From a virus (taxonomy: Duplodnaviria > Heunggongvirae > Uroviricota > Caudoviricetes), in the IMG/VR virus record IMGVR_UViG_2529292985_000016, positions 1 to 10,400 of that record: a DNA stretch of 10,400 nt, one strand, 5' to 3'. A model generated the notes under the pieces. That model was not told the origin of the DNA, did not search any database, and worked only from the letters and a program-made list of their open reading frames with translations. Position 1 is the first letter of the stretch; each line of letters starts with the position of its first letter. Positions 123-10,120 of the stretch are shown here, piece by piece. The position numbers and the translations under genes were made by a program.

Positions 123-1508
123 TTAAACACTCGCCACGTTATACCAGGTGCCATTAATCAGTTTCTGAAGCGGGCGGTAATACACGCCGTTGACGTTATC
201 CGCTGAGTCACGGCCGGTATCCGATATCGCTATCCCTGACAGCCCGTGTCCCGAAGGTGCGCGAAATCTCCACGAAACGGTGTTACTGCCGGGGCTGTAA
301 TACATTTCATGGCCATACCGTACATCCTGTACCCCCTCTGTTCGATATTTATAGCGGGCATCGAAGTTTCCGTAATTTAACGGAATTACCTGTCCGTTTA
401 CGGCGAACGTGATGCTGTTATCTGTATTCCTCTGGCTGAAAAAATGCCAGCCTGAATCATCGCCAAGCTCTGCAACAACAGACCAGGATGGATTACCCCA
501 CAAATAAAACGCTGCATTTTTCGTGGAGTTGTTGGCGCTGGATAACGTGAATTTTCTGGCAGTTCCGGCCTGAATATTCTTAAAAACAATAGCCACTCCA
601 TTCTGAAAGCGGAATACACGCTGACTATTAGCATAAACATCCAGAATACCGTCTCCATTCTGTTTAAATCCGGTGTCATTATCACCAAGAACAATTGAAT
701 TCCCCCCCAGGGCGTTCTGAACGCCGATACCCAGCGCACCATTGACCTGCGAACCACCGCCAACAGACACTTTATGCGACATGGATATTTCACCCGTCCG
801 CAAATTAATGGTGAACGGGCGCAGGGGACCAATATCGCCATTTTCCCCCTGACCTTCACTGGTGGGAATAAGGTGCAGGCACTCTTCCGAACGACGAAAA
901 ATCAGGCCAAAAGCTTCGTTGAAAATCCTCAGCGCATTAACACCACGGATTTTCAGCTCTCCGGTTATTTTATCGCCTTCCCGATGAACATAGCGTTGAT
1001 CTGACTGCTCTTTACTGTAAACCTGAAGATTATCCCGTGCCGTCCCTTTATTCTGAAGGTCTGACAGATTGTTCTTCTGCCGCAGGAATATCCTTTTCGG
1101 ATCCTCAAGAAGATTTACCCAGCCCGCACTGTCGGAGCCTTCAGGATCGGTCAGGTTATCGTCTGTGGTATTCAGCCAGACCGCTGTTGTTGCGACTCCG
1201 GCGAGAATGGCTCCTTTTGCATATCCACCAATGGCCCCCGCAAAACCGGCATTATACGTGTACAAACCGCCAGCTTGGGCGAACCGTATTGCTGCGGTAA
1301 TATCGTACATCAGACCGTTAAAATCCTTGCCGTGTGGCGGTATACCTCCCGCTGAGACCGCTGTCATGGTCACCGGAGGAAAACCTGAATCATACGCAGC
1401 ATTACCGCTCTCTCTGGTCTGCTGTGTCGCCTTGTCCGGGATACGGTTTTTATCTCCGGTACTCGCAAAGGGGACCGCCAGCTGGCGGGGTTTATCACTG
1501 GCCTTCAT
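123..1508 (-). CDS. Tail fibre protein (461 aa) with a P2 gpH / Mu S-family C-terminal region
   Basis: Intact ORF. Start ATG 1508..1506 is preceded by AAGGAG (1521..1516) with a 7-nt spacer. It overlaps the upstream gene's stop by 14 nt and is followed by the Tfa gene. The C-terminal half contains the block [42 protein letters not shown]...[11 protein letters not shown], which I recall as the conserved C-terminal region of P2 gpH-type fibres. Confidence 0.85.
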
Positions 1509-1820
1509 TACGGGACTCCTTTAAAACTACTGAAACATAAACACCCGGCGGGGACGGCAGTGCACCCGACGACTGGATAATCGCCAGTTCTGCCAACGAG
1601 AGCGCGGACTCAAAGATGTAACTCATCCTCAGCCCACCATTATTCAGAACATAAGCCCGCCGTTTTTTTCCGAACATAAATCTCAGCATCCGGTTAATAT
1701 CCGGAACGGAACAGTCAGTAATGTTCGACATGGCTTTCATCAGTATCAGCCGCCGGTATACAGCATCAGACAGGTCAACAGTCCGGGTATCCGATTTTCC
1801 GTTGTAAAACGGTGCCTGAT
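1495..1820 (-). pseudogene. C-terminal fragment of a baseplate gene (P2 gpI / Mu gp48 position) interrupted by IS2
   Basis: The frame is continuous with the N-terminal fragment at 3152..3436 once IS2 is removed (…PCPFNQ|APFYNGKSD…). Stop TGA at 1497..1495. The six-frame ORF 1495..1848 starts 28 nt inside the IS2 left end, so its first 9 codons (MSGDSGGQS) are IS-derived and artefactual. Confidence 0.75.
1816..1820. repeat. Left copy of the 5-bp target site duplication (CTGAT) flanking IS2
   Basis: CTGAT lies immediately outside the IS2 left end (1816..1820) and is repeated immediately outside the right end (3152..3156). IS2 is known to make 5-bp duplications. Confidence 0.85.
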
Positions 1821-1861
1821 TAGACTGGCCCCCTGAATCTCCAGACAACCAGTATCACTTA
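1821..1861. repeat. IS2 left terminal inverted repeat (IRL)
   Basis: IRL TAGACTGGCCCCCTGAATCTCCAGACAACCAGTATCACTTA aligns imperfectly, with a 1-nt offset, to the reverse complement of the right end TGGATTTGCCCCTATATTTCCAGACATCTGTTATCACTTA. Shared blocks are GCCCC, TCCAGACA and TATCACTTA. Confidence 0.8.
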
Positions 1862-1911
1862 AATAAGTGATAGTCTTAATACTAGTTTTTAGACTAGTCA
1901 TTGGGGTACAG

Positions 1912-2277
1912 ATGATTGATGTCTTAGGGCCGGAGAAACGCAGACGGCGTACCACACAGGAAAAGATCGCAATTGTTCAGCAGAGCTTTGAACCGGGGAT
2001 GACGGTCTCCCTCGTTGCCCGGCAACATGGTGTAGCAGCCAGCCAGTTATTTCTCTGGCGTAAGCAATACCAGGAAGGAAGTCTTACTGCTGTGGCCGCC
2101 GGAGAACAGGTTGTTCCTGCCTCTGAACTTGCTGCCGCCATGAAGCAGATTAAAGAACTCCAGCGCCTGCTCGGCAAGAAAACGATGGAAAATGAACACC
2201 TCAAAGAAGCCGTTGAATATGGACGGGCAAAAAAGTGGATAGCGCACGCGCCCTTATTGCCCGGGGATGGGGAGTAA
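1912..2277 (+). CDS. insC: IS2 transposase OrfA (InsC), 121 aa
   Basis: ATG at 1912 (the listed ORF begins at an upstream GTG at 1867). Translation [56 protein letters not shown]…[16 protein letters not shown] matches IS2 InsC as I recall it. Stop TAA at 2275..2277. Confidence 0.9.
2229..2235 (+). other. IS2 programmed -1 ribosomal frameshift heptamer A_AAA_AAG that produces the InsCD (OrfAB) transposase
   Basis: AAAAAAG at 2229..2235 sits in the X_XXY_YYZ register of the insC frame (codons GCA AAA AAG TGG). The insD frame is -1 relative to insC and overlaps it. This is the known IS3-family mechanism. Confidence 0.7.
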
Positions 2278-3140
2278 GCTTAGTCAGCCGTTGTCTCCGG
2301 ATGTCGCGTGCGCAGTTGCACGTCATTCTCAGACGAACTGATGACTGGATGGATGGCCGCCGCAGTCGTCACACTGATGATACGGATGTGCTTCTCCGTA
2401 TACACCATGTTATCGGAGAGCTGCCCACGTATGGTTATCGTCGGGTATGGGCGCTGCTTCGCAGACAGGCAGAACTTGATGGTATGCCTGCGATCAATGC
2501 CAAACGTGTTTACCGGATCATGCGCCAGAATGCGCTGTTGCTTGAGCGAAAGCCTGCTGTACCGCCATCGAAACGGGCACATACAGGCAGAGTGGCCGTG
2601 AAAGAAAGCAATCAGCGATGGTGCTCTGACGGGTTCGAGTTCTGCTGTGATAACGGAGAGAGACTGCGTGTCACGTTCGCGCTGGACTGCTGTGATCGTG
2701 AGGCACTGCACTGGGCGGTGACTACCGGCGGCTTCAACAGTGAAACAGTACAGGACGTCATGCTGGGAGCGGTGGAACGCCGCTTCGGCAACGATCTTCC
2801 GTCGTCTCCAGTGGAGTGGCTGACGGATAATGGTTCATGCTACCGGGCTAATGAAACACGCCAGTTCGCCCGGATGTTGGGACTTGAACCGAAGAACACG
2901 GCGGTGCGGAGTCCGGAGAGTAACGGAATAGCAGAGAGCTTCGTGAAAACGATAAAGCGTGACTACATCAGTATCATGCCCAAACCAGACGGGTTAACGG
3001 CAGCAAAGAACCTTGCAGAGGCGTTCGAGCATTATAACGAATGGCATCCGCATAGTGCGCTGGGTTATCGCTCGCCACGGGAATATCTGCGGCAGCGGGC
3101 TTGTAATGGGTTAAGTGATAACAGATGTCTGGAAATATAG
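2235..3140 (+). CDS. insD: IS2 transposase OrfB (InsD), 301 aa; expressed as an InsCD fusion by -1 frameshifting
   Basis: ORF of 301 codons with stop TAG at 3138..3140. It contains the IS3-family catalytic-core-like region (…[50 protein letters not shown]…). It overlaps the 3' end of insC in the -1 frame. Confidence 0.9.
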
Positions 3141-3151
3141 GGGCAAATCCA
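3111..3151. repeat. IS2 right terminal inverted repeat (IRR)
   Basis: Imperfect inverted match to the IRL at 1821..1861; the element ends …GGGGCAAATCCA at 3151. Confidence 0.8.
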
Positions 3152-3156
3152 CTGAT
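3152..3156. repeat. Right copy of the 5-bp target site duplication (CTGAT) flanking IS2
   Basis: Identical to 1816..1820. Removing IS2 plus one CTGAT copy rejoins the two gene fragments in frame. Confidence 0.85.
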
Positions 3157-3437: not shown

Positions 3438-4675
3438 TTATGCCTCCTGGAGTTTCACACTGATATCCGACACATCCAGAACCGGAATCTCATCTATCCC
3501 GAAAGTGACAGCCGTTGTCCATGACGAACCGTCACGGCTCACAGTAAGGCCCAGAATATCAATATGTTCCGGATCGGTTTTGTAAATGCCGGCATAGTAG
3601 CGCCCGGCAGAGACAACAGAGGCAACCCTTGCCCGCAGACCACCATCTGTACCATTAAATGCGTCCAGCACGGATTGCTGTACCTGTCGGGTAATATCTG
3701 AAGGCAGGTAGTCACTTTTTTTCAGCGTCACACTGACATGCAGACTGACGGGTTTGAGTGTCTGCCAGCTGATTACGTATTCAGGATACGGCGGATCGTA
3801 CTCCTTATCTGCAACAGTGAACGTTGTGTTGCCATTCATATCAATACCCGGCGGAGCCTTACGCCAGATGGCCGCCGCGATATCTGCCGGGCTGCCGCCG
3901 TACACGCCAACATAAAGCGAACCGGGTGTTAATGGATACTGACTGACTCCGGCTTTTTGTTCTGTTTTTTTCGGATTATGGGTGACGTAAACATCCACCA
4001 CGTTTTCTACCGTGGAGAGTATTTCACCCCGGATGGCTTCCAGAATATTCCGGGCATTACGGGCAACTGAATTACGTCGGCGGTTTTCAAAGTCCGCACG
4101 GGTTTCCTCATCGCTGCCCGGCACACCGGCACGGGCGTTAGTGACACCTGACCAGCCAGGTATTGCCTTATAAATTTTATTCAGCGTCCCCACAGGACAG
4201 CCGACGGGGCCGGTGGACAAATTCAGAAATACCGCATCAACCTGCCCTGATGCGCCGATAGTGACGTCTGACTGACATACTTATAACCGGCCTCATCCTG
4301 CCCCATACTGCCCGCCGGGATCAGCGTGCCAACCAGCCCGGTACAGGTCGCTGTTACTGTCGTACCTGTGGCCCCACGGCGCTCCAGGAAATAAATCCTG
4401 CCTATTGCATCCTGAAAGCGACCACTGGAAAAGTCAGGGTTGATCTGGTTAACGATATACAGCAACTGATCGTTTTTATCCGCAATAATGGCGCTTTCGC
4501 TGGATGCAAGTTGTCCCTGCGGACTGCTCAGACTGGTACTCATGGCCCCGCCCAGCGCCGCCGAAAAATCAGCAAGCCTGCCGCTCAGAATATCCGCTTC
4601 ATCCGGCACATTCAGCCCGCTATCCGAAATCTGTACAGCGGGCACTGCGGTAGAAAAAGATTTATTTTCACTCAT
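3438..4675 (-). pseudogene. Baseplate J-like protein gene (P2 gpJ / Mu gp47 family), split across two reading frames by an apparent frameshift near 4262-4280
   Basis: The upstream ORF (4223..4675, ATG at 4675 overlapping the preceding stop as ATGA) ends …GYKYVSQTSLSAHQGRLMRYF*. The downstream ORF (3438..4220) has only a TTG start with no Shine-Dalgarno motif, and its frame is open upstream to 4280 (VCQSDVTIGASGQVDAVFLNLSTGPVG…). The two frames overlap at 4226..4280 and read as one J-like protein of about 413 aa if a +1 (or +4) nt change is made. The switch point lies on a TGAC/CTGA tandem repeat (4268..4276). Confidence 0.6.
3443..3448 (-). promoter_or_regulatory. Shine-Dalgarno motif (AGGAGG) for the gpI-position gene
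   Basis: Minus-strand AGGAGG lies 6 nt upstream of the GTG start at 3436 and supports the non-ATG start. Confidence 0.6.
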
Positions 4676-5028
4676 AGCAGTACCGTAAAAATGTCATTAT
4701 TGGTATCTGTAATACGCAGCACACCTGTTACTGTCCGGGTTTGATCAGCTGTGACCTGGCAGACAGCGGCGCTCACGGTCGGCAGTTTAAGTGCTTCCTG
4801 TTGCAGAGTGGCATTCACCAGTTGTGTGCCGGGCCAGTGTCCGAGGATGCGTGGCCAGTAAGGTATGCCAGCCGTTGAGTCGTACCAGCACTCCCCCAGA
4901 AAAGTACTGCACGCACACGCCACATCCTGAGCTACCGCATGGGGATTATCAGTAATGGCAAGATTTCCGGTATCATCAAGCAGGATATCCCATGTCCCGG
5001 TGTCAAGAAGAAGTGATCGTGACTGCAT
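4672..5028 (-). CDS. Small baseplate protein (118 aa) at the position of P2 gpW / Mu gp46; family not recognised
   Basis: ATG at 5028 with an AGGAG Shine-Dalgarno motif 5 nt upstream (minus-strand ACAGGAGAAAAC ATG). Its stop TGA overlaps the next start as ATGA at 4672..4675. It sits between the spike and J-like genes. Confidence 0.6.
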   Translation of the reverse strand: MQSRSLLLDTGTWDILLDDTGNLAITDNPHAVAQDVACACSTFLGECWYDSTAGIPYWPRILGHWPGTQLVNATLQQEALKLPTVSAAVCQVTADQTRTVTGVLRITDTNNDIFTVLL

Positions 5029-5040
5029 GTTTTCTCCTGT

Positions 5041-5631
5041 TTACCGGGATCCCTGCGTGGTTGAGCCGCCGGACTCAACGCCGCCGTGAACGTGGTTTCC
5101 AAAATCAATACCCCCGATGTTCGAACCGCCGGAAAGCCTGGACTGCCCGGTAACGTCAAGCCCCTTACTGACGGCGGTATCGCCGTTCAGCGCAATTTGT
5201 GGTGAGTTAACGGTGAAGCTTTTCGGCGCATTAATCACCCCCTCAGGCGCGGATATCTCCACTTTCCAGGGAGATACAATCCGTATCTGGTTGTCATCAA
5301 ATACCACAAACTGGACGGGATCACCGTTGAGCACGCCACCCAGCCAGATGGCAAGAAAACCGATATCCCCCACATGTGGCGGGATAATCACCGCATTACC
5401 GCCCCCCTGTAGTCGCCATACGGGAATGTTATAAATCACCTCATGTTCAACCGGGGAACCGTCTGCTGCAACGCCCATTACCATCGGTCGGGCCTCAATA
5501 AATCCCTCTTCCACGGCTACCACCCGTCCCAGAGTGATAAACGCATGACGTCCGAGAAACTGCCGCAGCATAAAGTCCTGTGCATTGATTTCGCTGTTCA
5601 CGTCTGTCGGGTTACTGAGTGGTTGTGCCAT
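5041..5631 (-). CDS. Baseplate central spike protein, gpV-like (196 aa)
   Basis: The C-terminus …SGGSNIGGIDFGNHVHGGVESGGSTTQGSR carries a His-x-His apex motif, as in the P2 gpV spike (HTHKH…GGTTG). Size and position (upstream of the W-position and J-like genes) fit the Mu-type baseplate order. Start ATG at 5631 overlaps the upstream gene by 20 nt. Confidence 0.7.
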   Translation of the reverse strand: MAQPLSNPTDVNSEINAQDFMLRQFLGRHAFITLGRVVAVEEGFIEARPMVMGVAADGSPVEHEVIYNIPVWRLQGGGNAVIIPPHVGDIGFLAIWLGGVLNGDPVQFVVFDDNQIRIVSPWKVEISAPEGVINAPKSFTVNSPQIALNGDTAVSKGLDVTGQSRLSGGSNIGGIDFGNHVHGGVESGGSTTQGSR

Positions 5632-6481
5632 TTTCTTCAGCCCTCATCATGGTACAGTTGGAACTCCACGGACCGCCCACGGTTCGCGAAGTAATGGTGT
5701 GTATCACCCCTGTGATCGTATAATCGCCCGTCATATCAGGCAGTGACGATTCCAGATGCGCTGGCCTGCCAGTAAAGAGATCGGGGCAGAATATCGTGGT
5801 GGCGCTGAGTCCGGTCATGGTGTAAACCGGATAGCCAGTCAGTCCGTGATCCGGCGAAATCAGTACCGGCGGAATATTCCGGTTCTGCCCTTTCGGCCAG
5901 ATGGTGACTTTCTCCACATTCCCCAGATCAATGTTAATATCGGCGGCTGAAGCGACATCCAGCATTTGTTGTACAACATTACCGGAAAAATGCGGGTCAG
6001 ACAGACTGCGGCTGACCCCCTGGTTTTCAAATCCAAGCCCGACAGTTGACGCCAGCGCACGGATAATATCTGCAACCGCAACATCGCCCTTTGCGCTGAA
6101 ATCTGCCGCCGGCTGATTACGCAGATTAAAATGAATCTGTCCTGTCAGAATGAGCGGAATATCCGGCGCCTGGTTGTAGTCGGCGTATGCATCAGTAATA
6201 TCACCTTCAAAAATAAGCCGCCCGTCGGCCCACAGCCGCATTTTATTTTCGGTACTCTGCTCCTGTCGCCACACACCGCGCCAGCTTAAATTCGTCATAT
6301 GCGCCGGTGACATTCCCCAGATATACAGCGTGATTTGTGTACCAGCCACCCCTCCATATACGGCAATACTGGCAAAACAGCTTGCGTCGGTAATGGTCAG
6401 CATATTGCCCTGGCCATTACCAAACGTTCGTCCGTCTGAAAGAGTGAACTCCACCGTTATTTTACGTTGTCTGTAGCTCAT
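5612..6481 (-). CDS. Tail/baseplate protein (289 aa), unassigned family; occupies the hub-protein position upstream of the spike
   Basis: ORF whose start ATG (6481..6479) overlaps the upstream stop as ATGA. Placement between the tape measure and spike genes. No motif I can assign with confidence. Confidence 0.55.
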
Positions 6482-6780
6482 ATCAGTTCCTCAGGTAACA
6501 GCCAGTAGAGCCGGTACCGGGATCCGAGCCCCCGCCAGTCAGGGTCACTATTCCCCTCCGTGTCGGTAAAAAACAGGTCCCCCTGAAACGGCAGGTATCC
6601 GTACCGGACAATCCGGTTATTATTCAGACACAGCACGCCATACAGGCACGGTTCACCATTAACAATGATATCGATATACATCCCCGTAGTACGCTGATTC
6701 AGGCGAATGGTGCAGACCTGAGCGCCCAGTGTCACCGTAAACTGCTGGGCTTTAACGGGAGATAAAACAATTTCCAGCAT
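6478..6780 (-). CDS. Small tail/baseplate protein (100 aa), function unknown
   Basis: Start ATG at 6780..6778 overlaps the upstream stop as TGATG; its stop overlaps the next start as ATGA. Translational coupling inside the tail operon argues it is a real gene. Confidence 0.55.
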
Positions 6781-7490
6781 CAGGTGATCCCCCTGTTCGT
6801 GGCGCTTCGTCTGTCAGCGTCTGACGGTTGTGTCACCGACGCCGTAACTGGCTGCGTTTTAACCGATGCGGCCCCTTTTGCTTTATCGTTGTCCGTGGGA
6901 GACGACTTATCCGTACTTCCCACTGACACCTCTCCTGTATTCATTACGGTCTGAAATACCGCAGTAACCGTCAGTAAGGTCGGACCATTATTACTTCGCA
7001 TTCGGTAGTCATATTTCACAAGGTCGCAGGATGTCCATGTCTTGTCCGGCGTCTCAATATCGTAGAGTCCTGCCGTGGTACGCATCCTTTCAAGCGTTTC
7101 CAGCACATTCGTCCGCGAGGTGGTGGAAAAATTTGTCAGGTTCGGGACGGATCCGGAAAAGGCCGTCCACCCCTCTACAGTGAAAGTCACATGCAGTTCC
7201 GGCGATCTCTGGATTTTATTAAAGGTGGTATAAGCCCCCTGCTCCACGGGGACGGTGGAAACAGAAGCCTCCGCGCCCACCTCAACGACAACAAAAGAAT
7301 CCGGGGAGAAAGGTTTGCCACCCTTCTGATGGGCACCTGCCGGATCATTCCGTGCGTAATAAATACCGAATGACGGTGCCAGTACACTATTAATGAGTCC
7401 CAGGACACAGCCGCCACGAACTGCACTCAGTACGTTACTTTCACTGAGCGAAAAGTTATTCAGGGAAATATTATCGAAAGAAAAACTCAT
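6780..7490 (-). CDS. Tail protein (236 aa) immediately downstream of the tape measure gene; family not recognised
   Basis: Start ATG at 7490..7488 overlaps the tape measure stop (TGA 7489..7487) as ATGA. The position corresponds to the distal tail / baseplate-initiator proteins of contractile-tail phages. Confidence 0.6.
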
Positions 7491-9508: not shown

Positions 9509-10120
9509 TTCTGTTCTCCTGTATCACCTGTTCGTTATGGGCATCCACATGAATTATTTCCAGCAGATCCCATAAGTCCTGCACACCAAGGACAGAATCC
9601 AGTTCAGCTTTTGAAGCCTTACCGGAGGAGATAACGGTCGCAATGGTACGGGGAACATTAACGTAATCCACCACCCCGAACGGTCTGTCGGGGTCGAGAT
9701 AACGCGGGGGGATATCTAGCTGACGACGGTAGCGAAAAAATCCACATGCAGCTTAAAGACCTCCGCACGCAGATTAAGACGGGTAATGATTTCTTCAATA
9801 TCCTCTTCAACAAGCGGTCTCCGGATGCTGCGTTTTTTCGGATCGGGAACAAACTGCACACAGTCCATCATTTCATCCATCAACGGACGCGCCTCATCAG
9901 GCGGAATTTTCGATAATGCTTTCAGCCCTTCAAGGGCAAGCGCAGCCATCCCCAGACTACGAACATCATCCGGTAACTCCACGCCACCACGCCCCATTGC
10001 CATAATGGCACGCATCGCCCACCATTCCGCCTGTGAGGCAGACATTTCGGTAAGATGAAATACCTTGCCCTTATCCCGTCCCTGACCTTCAATAGTGATA
10101 AATTTCTCTTTACGGGCCAT
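9492..10120 (-). CDS. Predicted -1 frameshift fusion product of the tail assembly chaperone (gpGT / gpE+E' analogue, ~208 aa)
   Basis: The -1 frame is open from 9752 to a TGA at 9494..9492, overlapping the tape measure start by 17 nt. Shifting at T_TTT_TTC (9740..9734) continues …VDFF into RYRRQLDIPPRYLDPDRPFGVVDYVNVPRTIATVISSGKASKAELDSVLGVQDLWDLLEIIHVDAHNEQVIQENRNGAGT. The extension has no start codon with a Shine-Dalgarno motif of its own. Confidence 0.55.
9516..9520 (-). promoter_or_regulatory. Shine-Dalgarno motif (AGGAG) for the tape measure gene
   Basis: Minus-strand GATACAGGAGAACAGAA ATG gives a 7-nt spacer to the ATG at 9508. Confidence 0.6.
9716..10120 (-). CDS. Tail assembly chaperone (134 aa; analogue of lambda gpG / P2 gpE)
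   Basis: ATG at 10120 preceded by GGAGG (10135..10131). It lies directly upstream of the tape measure gene and ends with a slippery heptamer followed by an overlapping -1 frame ORF that runs to the tape measure start. Confidence 0.7.
   Translation of the reverse strand: MARKEKFITIEGQGRDKGKVFHLTEMSASQAEWWAMRAIMAMGRGGVELPDDVRSLGMAALALEGLKALSKIPPDEARPLMDEMMDCVQFVPDPKKRSIRRPLVEEDIEEIITRLNLRAEVFKLHVDFFATVVS
9734..9740 (-). other. Candidate -1 programmed ribosomal frameshift slippery heptamer T_TTT_TTC in the chaperone gene
   Basis: Minus-strand GAT TTT TTC GCT: the heptamer is in X_XXY_YYZ register with the chaperone frame, 6 codons before its stop, and the -1 frame is open downstream to the tape measure start. 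Confidence 0.55.

Follow-up and report, generated by a model that had tools for sequence, protein, structure and literature searches.

Inner baseplates of the "minimal myophage" type have been described in several cryo-EM structures since 2023. [quoted passage not shown] In the Escherichia coli phage phi92, the order is tape measure protein (TMP; gp134), tube initiator (gp135), plug (gp136), hub (gp137), spike, and sheath initiator (gp139) (PMC13450770; PDB 21VQ). Pseudomonas phage E217 has hub gp41, adaptor gp33, an additional ring termed tube-B (gp36), and a heterodimer of gp37 and gp38, and its adaptor genes are located upstream of the TMP gene (8EON, 8ENV, and 9B45; PMC10329688). For phage Mu, a single larger protein is reported to serve as both initiator and plug (PMC13450770).

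The window analysed here (the whole stretch of 10,400 nucleotides) is the complete contig AERM01000132.1 of assembly GCA_000193895.2. Its minus strand carries a continuous run of tail genes, which are given below in the order of that strand together with an insertion on the plus strand.

9716-10120, minus strand: tail assembly chaperone, 134 aa
9492-9674, minus strand: conserved ORF, 60 aa
7487-9508, minus strand: TMP with a C-terminal lytic transglycosylase (SLT) domain, 673 aa, intact
6780-7490, minus strand: predicted tube initiator (Dit-like), 236 aa (PF21821; profile and fold matches)
6478-6780, minus strand: predicted baseplate plug or adaptor, 100 aa (PF22479; phmmer)
5612-6481, minus strand: predicted baseplate central hub (gp27-like), 289 aa (PF22759; PHROG 196; AF2 and Foldseek)
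5041-5631, minus strand: membrane-puncturing spike (gpV/phi92-spike type), 196 aa (Apex motif PF18946)
4672-5028, minus strand: sheath initiator (gp25/gpW-like), 118 aa (PHROG 120; PF10934)
3438-4675, minus strand: J-like wedge gene, a frameshifted pseudogene with ORFs of 150 and 260 aa
3152-3436 and 1495-1820, minus strand: DUF2612 (Phage_Wedge1) wedge gene, split by the presumed IS2
1821-3151, plus strand: insertion of 1331 bp, presumably IS2

We propose, with a probability of roughly 0.93, that the 236-, 100-, and 289-aa proteins are the tube initiator, plug, and hub that form the innermost part of a simple baseplate of a contractile tail, of the type known from Pam3, phi92, E217, and phiTE. 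From initiator to wedge, the genes are arranged as in Pam3 (initiator, plug, hub, spike, sheath initiator, and wedge), and the order from TMP to sheath initiator is the same as in phi92, the tape measure being found here at the gp134 position. However, the sequence identity to Pam3 proteins is very low; the Pam3 hub has 229 aa and the Pam3 initiator 191 aa (versus 289 and 236 aa here), and Pam3 is a cyanophage, unrelated in host and phage lineage to the enterobacterial lambdoid prophage studied here. Phage phi92 is a large lytic myovirus with a far more elaborate fibre set, and its proteins are only distant homologues of those in the window. Compared to E217, there is a single initiator here instead of the additional ring and heterodimer, and the plug gene is located between the initiator and hub genes.

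The three ORFs lie between the TMP and the gpV-like spike exactly where the preliminary description had placed them, and the overlaps by which it had linked them can be read in the sequence: ATGA between the TMP and 236-aa genes, TGATG between the 236- and 100-aa genes, and ATGA between the 100- and 289-aa genes. In addition, the hub gene shares 20 nt with the spike gene, and Shine-Dalgarno-like purine runs (AGGGGGA and GAGGAA) are found 5 to 7 nt upstream of the 100- and 289-aa starts. The three genes appear to be expressed together from a single late operon in which stop and start codons overlap, and from these overlaps we infer that they may be translationally coupled. They are real genes and not chance ORFs, since each has hundreds of homologues and, in 88 of 93 related loci, the three are found together in an unchanged order.

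The flanking assignments are also based on family matches. The TMP matches the Pfam SLT domain (93 bits; residues 493 to 598), PHROG 2013 ("lytic tail protein") over its full length (2.4e-244), and tape-measure PHROGs 2276 and 9570. The sheath initiator matches PHROG 120 ("baseplate wedge subunit"; 6.8e-36), and PF10934 (Sheath_initiator) is recorded on an identical gene in precomputed Pfam annotation. Within the region, nine further ORFs of 50 to 79 aa (seven on the plus strand and two in other minus-strand frames) had no Pfam match, and no Rfam family was detected in the window. Promoter-like sites in the window were no commoner than in shuffled sequence, and terminator-like sites numbered 13 (5.7 ± 2.6 expected).

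Assignment of the three proteins

The 289-aa protein matches PF22759 (E217_GP41, "baseplate hub") with 32.7 bits against a cut-off of 27, as well as PHROG 196 ("baseplate hub"; 1.1e-63). When a hub profile of 17 sequences was compared with the PDB, it matched Pam3 hub gp19 (1.6e-6) and phi92 gp137 (3e-4) and, more weakly, the E217 gp41/Pa193 gp42 hub (0.02) and the phiTE hub (0.057). The AlphaFold model of the protein is confident (pLDDT, 81.7; pTM, 0.72), and Foldseek matched it best to the hubs of phiTE, Bas63, E217, and Pa193 (E values, 1e-15 to 1e-17; TM scores, 0.62 to 0.69, and 0.64 to 0.69 for the first three phages), including the phiTE hub 9cuy_X (8.9e-17; TM, 0.67) and E217 gp41 8eon_E (1.4e-15; TM, 0.69). 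The later matches belong to the gp27 superfamily, with Mu gp44, MuSo2, T4 gp27, VgrG, and the pyocin and AFP hubs. The exact sequence is on record from Shigella dysenteriae, and its RefSeq name is "baseplate hub protein."

The 100-aa protein scored 80.2 bits (cut-off, 24.2) against PF22479 (Pam3_gp18, "cyanophage baseplate plug"), a family that Pfam derived from Pam3 gp18, with residues 1 to 94 aligned to positions 1 to 99 of the 101-position model. In phmmer searches, it aligned over its whole length with Pa193 gp34 (9b45_A; E = 0.006) and the E217 gp33 adaptor (8env_G; E = 0.007). Its PHROG is 349 ("virion structural protein"), and its RefSeq name is "phage baseplate plug family protein." A plug profile of 12 sequences, which was too shallow and built from too closely related sequences, gave scores against the PDB no better than those of chance matches; the plug assignment is therefore based on the Pfam match and the single-sequence matches (E, ~0.006).

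For the 236-aa protein, the match to PF21821 (Dit_like) is modest, with 28.1 bits against the curated gathering cut-off of 24.2 (residues 64 to 182, model positions 2 to 116 of 127); in Acinetobacter phage P919, the homologue reaches 37 bits against the same family. The best PHROG, 1830, is labelled "unknown function." Neither a single-sequence phmmer search nor a shallow profile of 21 sequences found any relative in the PDB. An exhaustive HMM search showed that the family comprises 1610 clusters at 50% identity (E ≤ 1e-3), and only a profile of 105 sequences drawn from this representative search linked the protein to tube initiators in the PDB, namely, the phiTE tube initiator/Dit-like protein 9cuy_K (7.2e-7) and phi92 gp135 (3.4e-4) and, more weakly, Bas63 tube initiator gp018 (0.18) and Pam3 gp17 (0.26). 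The AF2 model is of low confidence (mean pLDDT, 53), and the top Foldseek matches of this model are all baseplate initiator or tube-fold chains, from Bas63 (3.5e-5), E217 (8eon_D among the matches; 1.4e-4), Pa193, A-1(L) ("baseplate-initiators"), Pam3 (3.1e-3), and SPP1 (Dit), with TM scores of 0.3 to 0.5. The gene is located directly downstream of the TMP gene and upstream of the hub gene, also in 88 of the 93 related loci. The exact protein sequence is recorded in S. dysenteriae as "phage baseplate protein" or [quoted passage not shown]

The C-terminal ~50 residues of the 236-aa protein are low-complexity and unstructured in the model, in contrast to the two helices of the Pam3 initiator; this would be in line with phi92 gp135, which has a "flexible C-terminal loop," and with E217 gp37 and gp38, whose C termini are extended. 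The low-complexity arm of the enterobacterial 236-aa initiator is shorter than that of the 268- to 274-aa forms from Serratia and Photorhabdus. A truncation specific to the window was rejected as the explanation of the 236-aa length, because the 236/100/289 length triple is common to 42 related loci.

Related loci and competing readings

The region is present, with 99.7% to 99.8% identity, in nine complete E. coli genomes, in which the three genes are annotated as "phage baseplate protein," "phage baseplate plug family protein," and "baseplate hub protein." The names given in RefSeq and UniRef are consistent with the family assignments, the exact sequences being recorded with Dit-like, Pam3-plug, and baseplate names. 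No match was found when the region was compared with cultured phages by megablast. At the protein level (tblastn), the relatives are ~44-kb myoviruses infecting Acinetobacter, Aeromonas, Ralstonia, Burkholderia, Klebsiella, and Pantoea. In two cultured phages, PA-1 of Pantoea and P919 of Acinetobacter, the genes run in the order sheath, tube, chaperone, TMP, Dit-like protein, plug, hub, spike, wedge, J, DUF2612, and fibre.

The co-occurrence of the trio in related prophages, which the preliminary description had left to be checked, was confirmed in a set of 93 loci composed of IMG/VR prophage regions, GTDB genomes (Serratia, Xenorhabdus, and Photorhabdus), and three annotated records. All three genes are found on one strand and in the same order in 88 of these. 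The initiator and plug genes overlap at stop and start by 1 or 4 nt in 87 of the 88 loci, and a 4-nt overlap of the plug and hub genes is present in 64. In three of the five exceptions, the locus runs off the contig or the hub gene is truncated; of the others, one has only a truncated plug, and one has no plug match at the threshold used. In one related full prophage (L001), the tail module adjoins genes for terminase, a portal-type protein (DUF1073), head morphogenesis, capsid cement, lysis, and the lambdoid late region. L001 also encodes a neck terminator, a J-like protein, a DUF2612 protein, tail fibres, and, at the sheath position, a DUF3383 protein; the homologous position in PA-1 and P919 is annotated "tail sheath." In E. 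coli CFSAN029787, the prophage adjoins sitABCD, and its TMP gene is frameshifted. The genes of the window lie in a prophage of S. dysenteriae that combines lambdoid late-regulation and lysis genes with a myovirus tail module.

The downstream genes had been described as following a Mu-type order. This holds approximately, as the succession of spike, gp25-like, and J-like proteins resembles that of Mu, but DUF2612 (Phage_Wedge1) takes the place of a wedge protein of the Mu gp48/P2 gpI type and the plug is separate, which is the Pam3/phi92/E217 arrangement. The resemblance could be extended to a Mu/P2-type hub region, in which the 236-aa protein would correspond to Mu gp43 (DNA circulation protein), the 289-aa protein would be the counterpart of Mu gp44 or P2 gpD, and the 100-aa ORF would be a lineage-specific extra without a structural role. 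We regard this as unlikely. The hub model does match Mu gp44 (1wru, E = 2.2e-9; 9ki1_G), the MuSo2 43-kDa tail protein, and T4 gp27 (~1e-7), and the overall baseplate logic is alike, but the likeness to Mu gp44 is at the level of the modelled fold only. At E ≤ 0.1, the Pfam scan returned only Dit_like, Pam3_gp18, and E217_GP41 for the trio and no match to the Mu gp43, Mu gp44, or P2 gpD families, and the closest sequence and fold matches are proteins of Pam3, E217, phiTE, phi92, and Bas63. Moreover, the 100-aa protein matches the plug family strongly (80 bits), and its gene is kept in 90 of the 93 loci. The earlier remark that Mu has two larger proteins in this position is upheld; because one of them is reported to act as initiator and plug combined (PMC13450770) and Mu lacks a separate plug, whereas one is encoded here, the region is unlike that of Mu.

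In the preliminary description, none of the three proteins could be matched to a family by eye, and they were put forward as the best candidates for undescribed proteins, most likely divergent distal-tail or hub components. The latter guess was apt, as the 236-aa protein is assigned as a Dit-like initiator, the 289-aa protein as a gp27-type hub, and the 100-aa protein as a plug between hub and wedge. The former part did not survive profile searches, which yielded what the description itself had named in advance as counter-evidence, namely, clear matches of all three proteins to known baseplate families. A set of baseplate components without family membership would be in keeping with the empty single-sequence search of the 236-aa protein against the PDB, with the label of PHROG 1830, and with NCBIfam, in which no model exceeded its cut-off for any of the three proteins. 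It is nevertheless very improbable: all three exceed curated Pfam cut-offs (PF21821, PF22479, and PF22759) and are thereby placed in known baseplate families, larger profiles and fold comparisons lead to homologues with solved structures and assigned names among initiators and hubs, and public records, including RefSeq, name all three. As to structure, the hub model could be superposed on the phiTE, Bas63, and E217 hubs and, more distantly, on Mu gp44, T4 gp27, and VgrG, and the comparison of the initiator was made with a model of low confidence. An origin of the module from a tailocin or an extracellular contractile injection system might be considered as well, since Foldseek also returned pyocin R2, diffocin, AFP, PVC, and T6SS VgrG chains. 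These matches are weaker than those to phages, however, and the head, packaging, and lysis genes beside the tail module of L001, together with the ~44-kb myoviruses as the closest cultured relatives, make such an origin extremely improbable.

State of the module in this copy

The module around the trio is decaying. The spike of the window has an in-frame internal deletion of 29 aa, which are retained in every close relative (an 87-nt gap in the alignment, with the junction at ~5345-5353). The intact 225-aa spike of L001 matches PF18352, the N-terminal domain of the phi92 spike family, whereas the window spike has no PF18352 match. Both ORFs of the J-like gene match PHROG 6, at positions 49 to 182 and 200 to 407. 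The intact homologue in L001 has 413 aa; the window gene is 4 nt shorter, and its frame diverges after residue ~136. An in-frame stop as the cause of the split was thus rejected in favour of a frameshift.

The boundaries of the insertion and its 5-bp target duplication (CTGAT) were read against the uninterrupted target in L001. The element has two overlapping ORFs of 136 and 301 aa, whose fused product contains the transposase domains HTH_Tnp_1 and rve, and from its terminal sequences and ORF products we take it to be IS2. PF11041 matches both fragments of the wedge gene that it splits; the intact DUF2612 protein of L001 scores 223 bits. Because the spike gene and both wedge genes (J-like and DUF2612) are damaged, the module in this copy is probably non-functional.

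The initiator, plug, and hub differ from those of the E. coli copy by 2, 0, and 1 residues, respectively. That the trio is intact amid this decay could be ascribed to selection for a hub/plug/initiator sub-complex beneficial to the host and not to chance survival or, in a milder version, it could be supposed that the 236-aa initiator with its shorter arm holds the plug differently. We consider such proposals improbable.

Proposed arrangement of the inner baseplate

For the proposed initiator, plug, and hub, the family assignment, gene order, co-occurrence, and hub fold were computed here, and the stoichiometry, contacts, and release on contraction are taken from solved homologous virions. By analogy with these, a trimer of the 289-aa hub would dock on the spike trimer and adapt the six-fold tube to the three-fold spike. 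Six subunits of the 236-aa initiator would assemble on top of the hub into a ring of tube fold, from which the tube would start to polymerise around the tape measure. The plug would be present as six monomers, predicted to be Ig-like, which the initiator may hold by extended C-terminal arms reaching outward. The plug is predicted to fix the helical bundle of the wedge to the hub, so that the wedge ring would be attached to hub and initiator, and both the plug and the spike would be lost on contraction.

As a gene set, the trio has been described and annotated before, and the main value of its identification is correct annotation, with little beyond that. A gene for a protein of ~100 aa between the Dit-like and hub genes, right after the tape measure gene, marks a baseplate of the Pam3/phi92 type.

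Deletion in the spike gene and frameshift in the J-like gene

The features of the window discussed here are located as follows.

Features of the window
123-1508: tail-fibre gene, mosaic relative to E. coli CFSAN029787
1821-3151: complete IS2 of 1331 bp, with the 5-bp target duplication CTGAT at 1816-1820 and 3152-3156
3438-4675: J-like baseplate wedge gene, frameshifted, present as 150-aa and 260-aa ORFs
5041-5631, minus strand: spike gene, with a deletion junction at ~5345-5353 placed by comparison with close relatives
6780-6930, minus strand: C-terminus of the 236-aa tube initiator, covered by alignment A1

Compared with all close relatives retrieved, the spike gene of the window lacks 87 nt (29 aa) in-frame, and part of the PF18352 N-terminal domain has been lost through this deletion, which is bordered by the short near-repeat CAGATGGCA. 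The RefSeq product name for the spike includes "membrane-puncturing spike protein," and from context we take the PF18352/RefSeq spike family to be that of the phi92 spike. The resulting 196-aa form appears to be fixed in one lineage, as it was found in 35 contig blocks. In one related contig (L097), the 196-aa spike occurs together with an intact 414-aa J gene, and the spike deletion is therefore older than the J frameshift.

The J-like gene has 4 nt fewer in the window than in E. coli CFSAN029787, where it is intact at 413 aa. The 150-aa fragment matched PHROG 30339 (150 positions, "unknown function") end to end (1.5e-103), suggesting that the truncated form of J may be the source of this family.

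Tail-fibre mosaicism and the tube initiator C-terminus

Identity between the window and CFSAN029787 reached 98% at positions 971 to 1829 and only 89% at positions 1 to 395, and no match to ~396-970 was seen in this comparison. Such a mosaic pattern in a tail-fibre gene is typical of receptor-binding domain exchange.

The C-terminal tail of the tube initiator is far shorter in E. coli, Salmonella, and Shigella (236 aa) than in Serratia, Xenorhabdus, and Photorhabdus (264 to 274 aa); Salmonella also has a 258-aa variant. When back-translated and inspected by eye, the ends of the 236-aa and 258-aa forms look related through a frameshift just before the stop codon.

Insertion sequences and decay across prophage copies

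The IS2 element of the window breaks the DUF2612/Phage_Wedge1 wedge gene. IS2 or IS1 was also observed elsewhere in the same prophage in three related contigs (L012, L052, and L094). The tape measure gene is intact in the window (673 aa) but is annotated as frameshifted in the otherwise more intact CFSAN029787 relative (L001, positions 21876-23896). The prophage copies differ in which genes have decayed.
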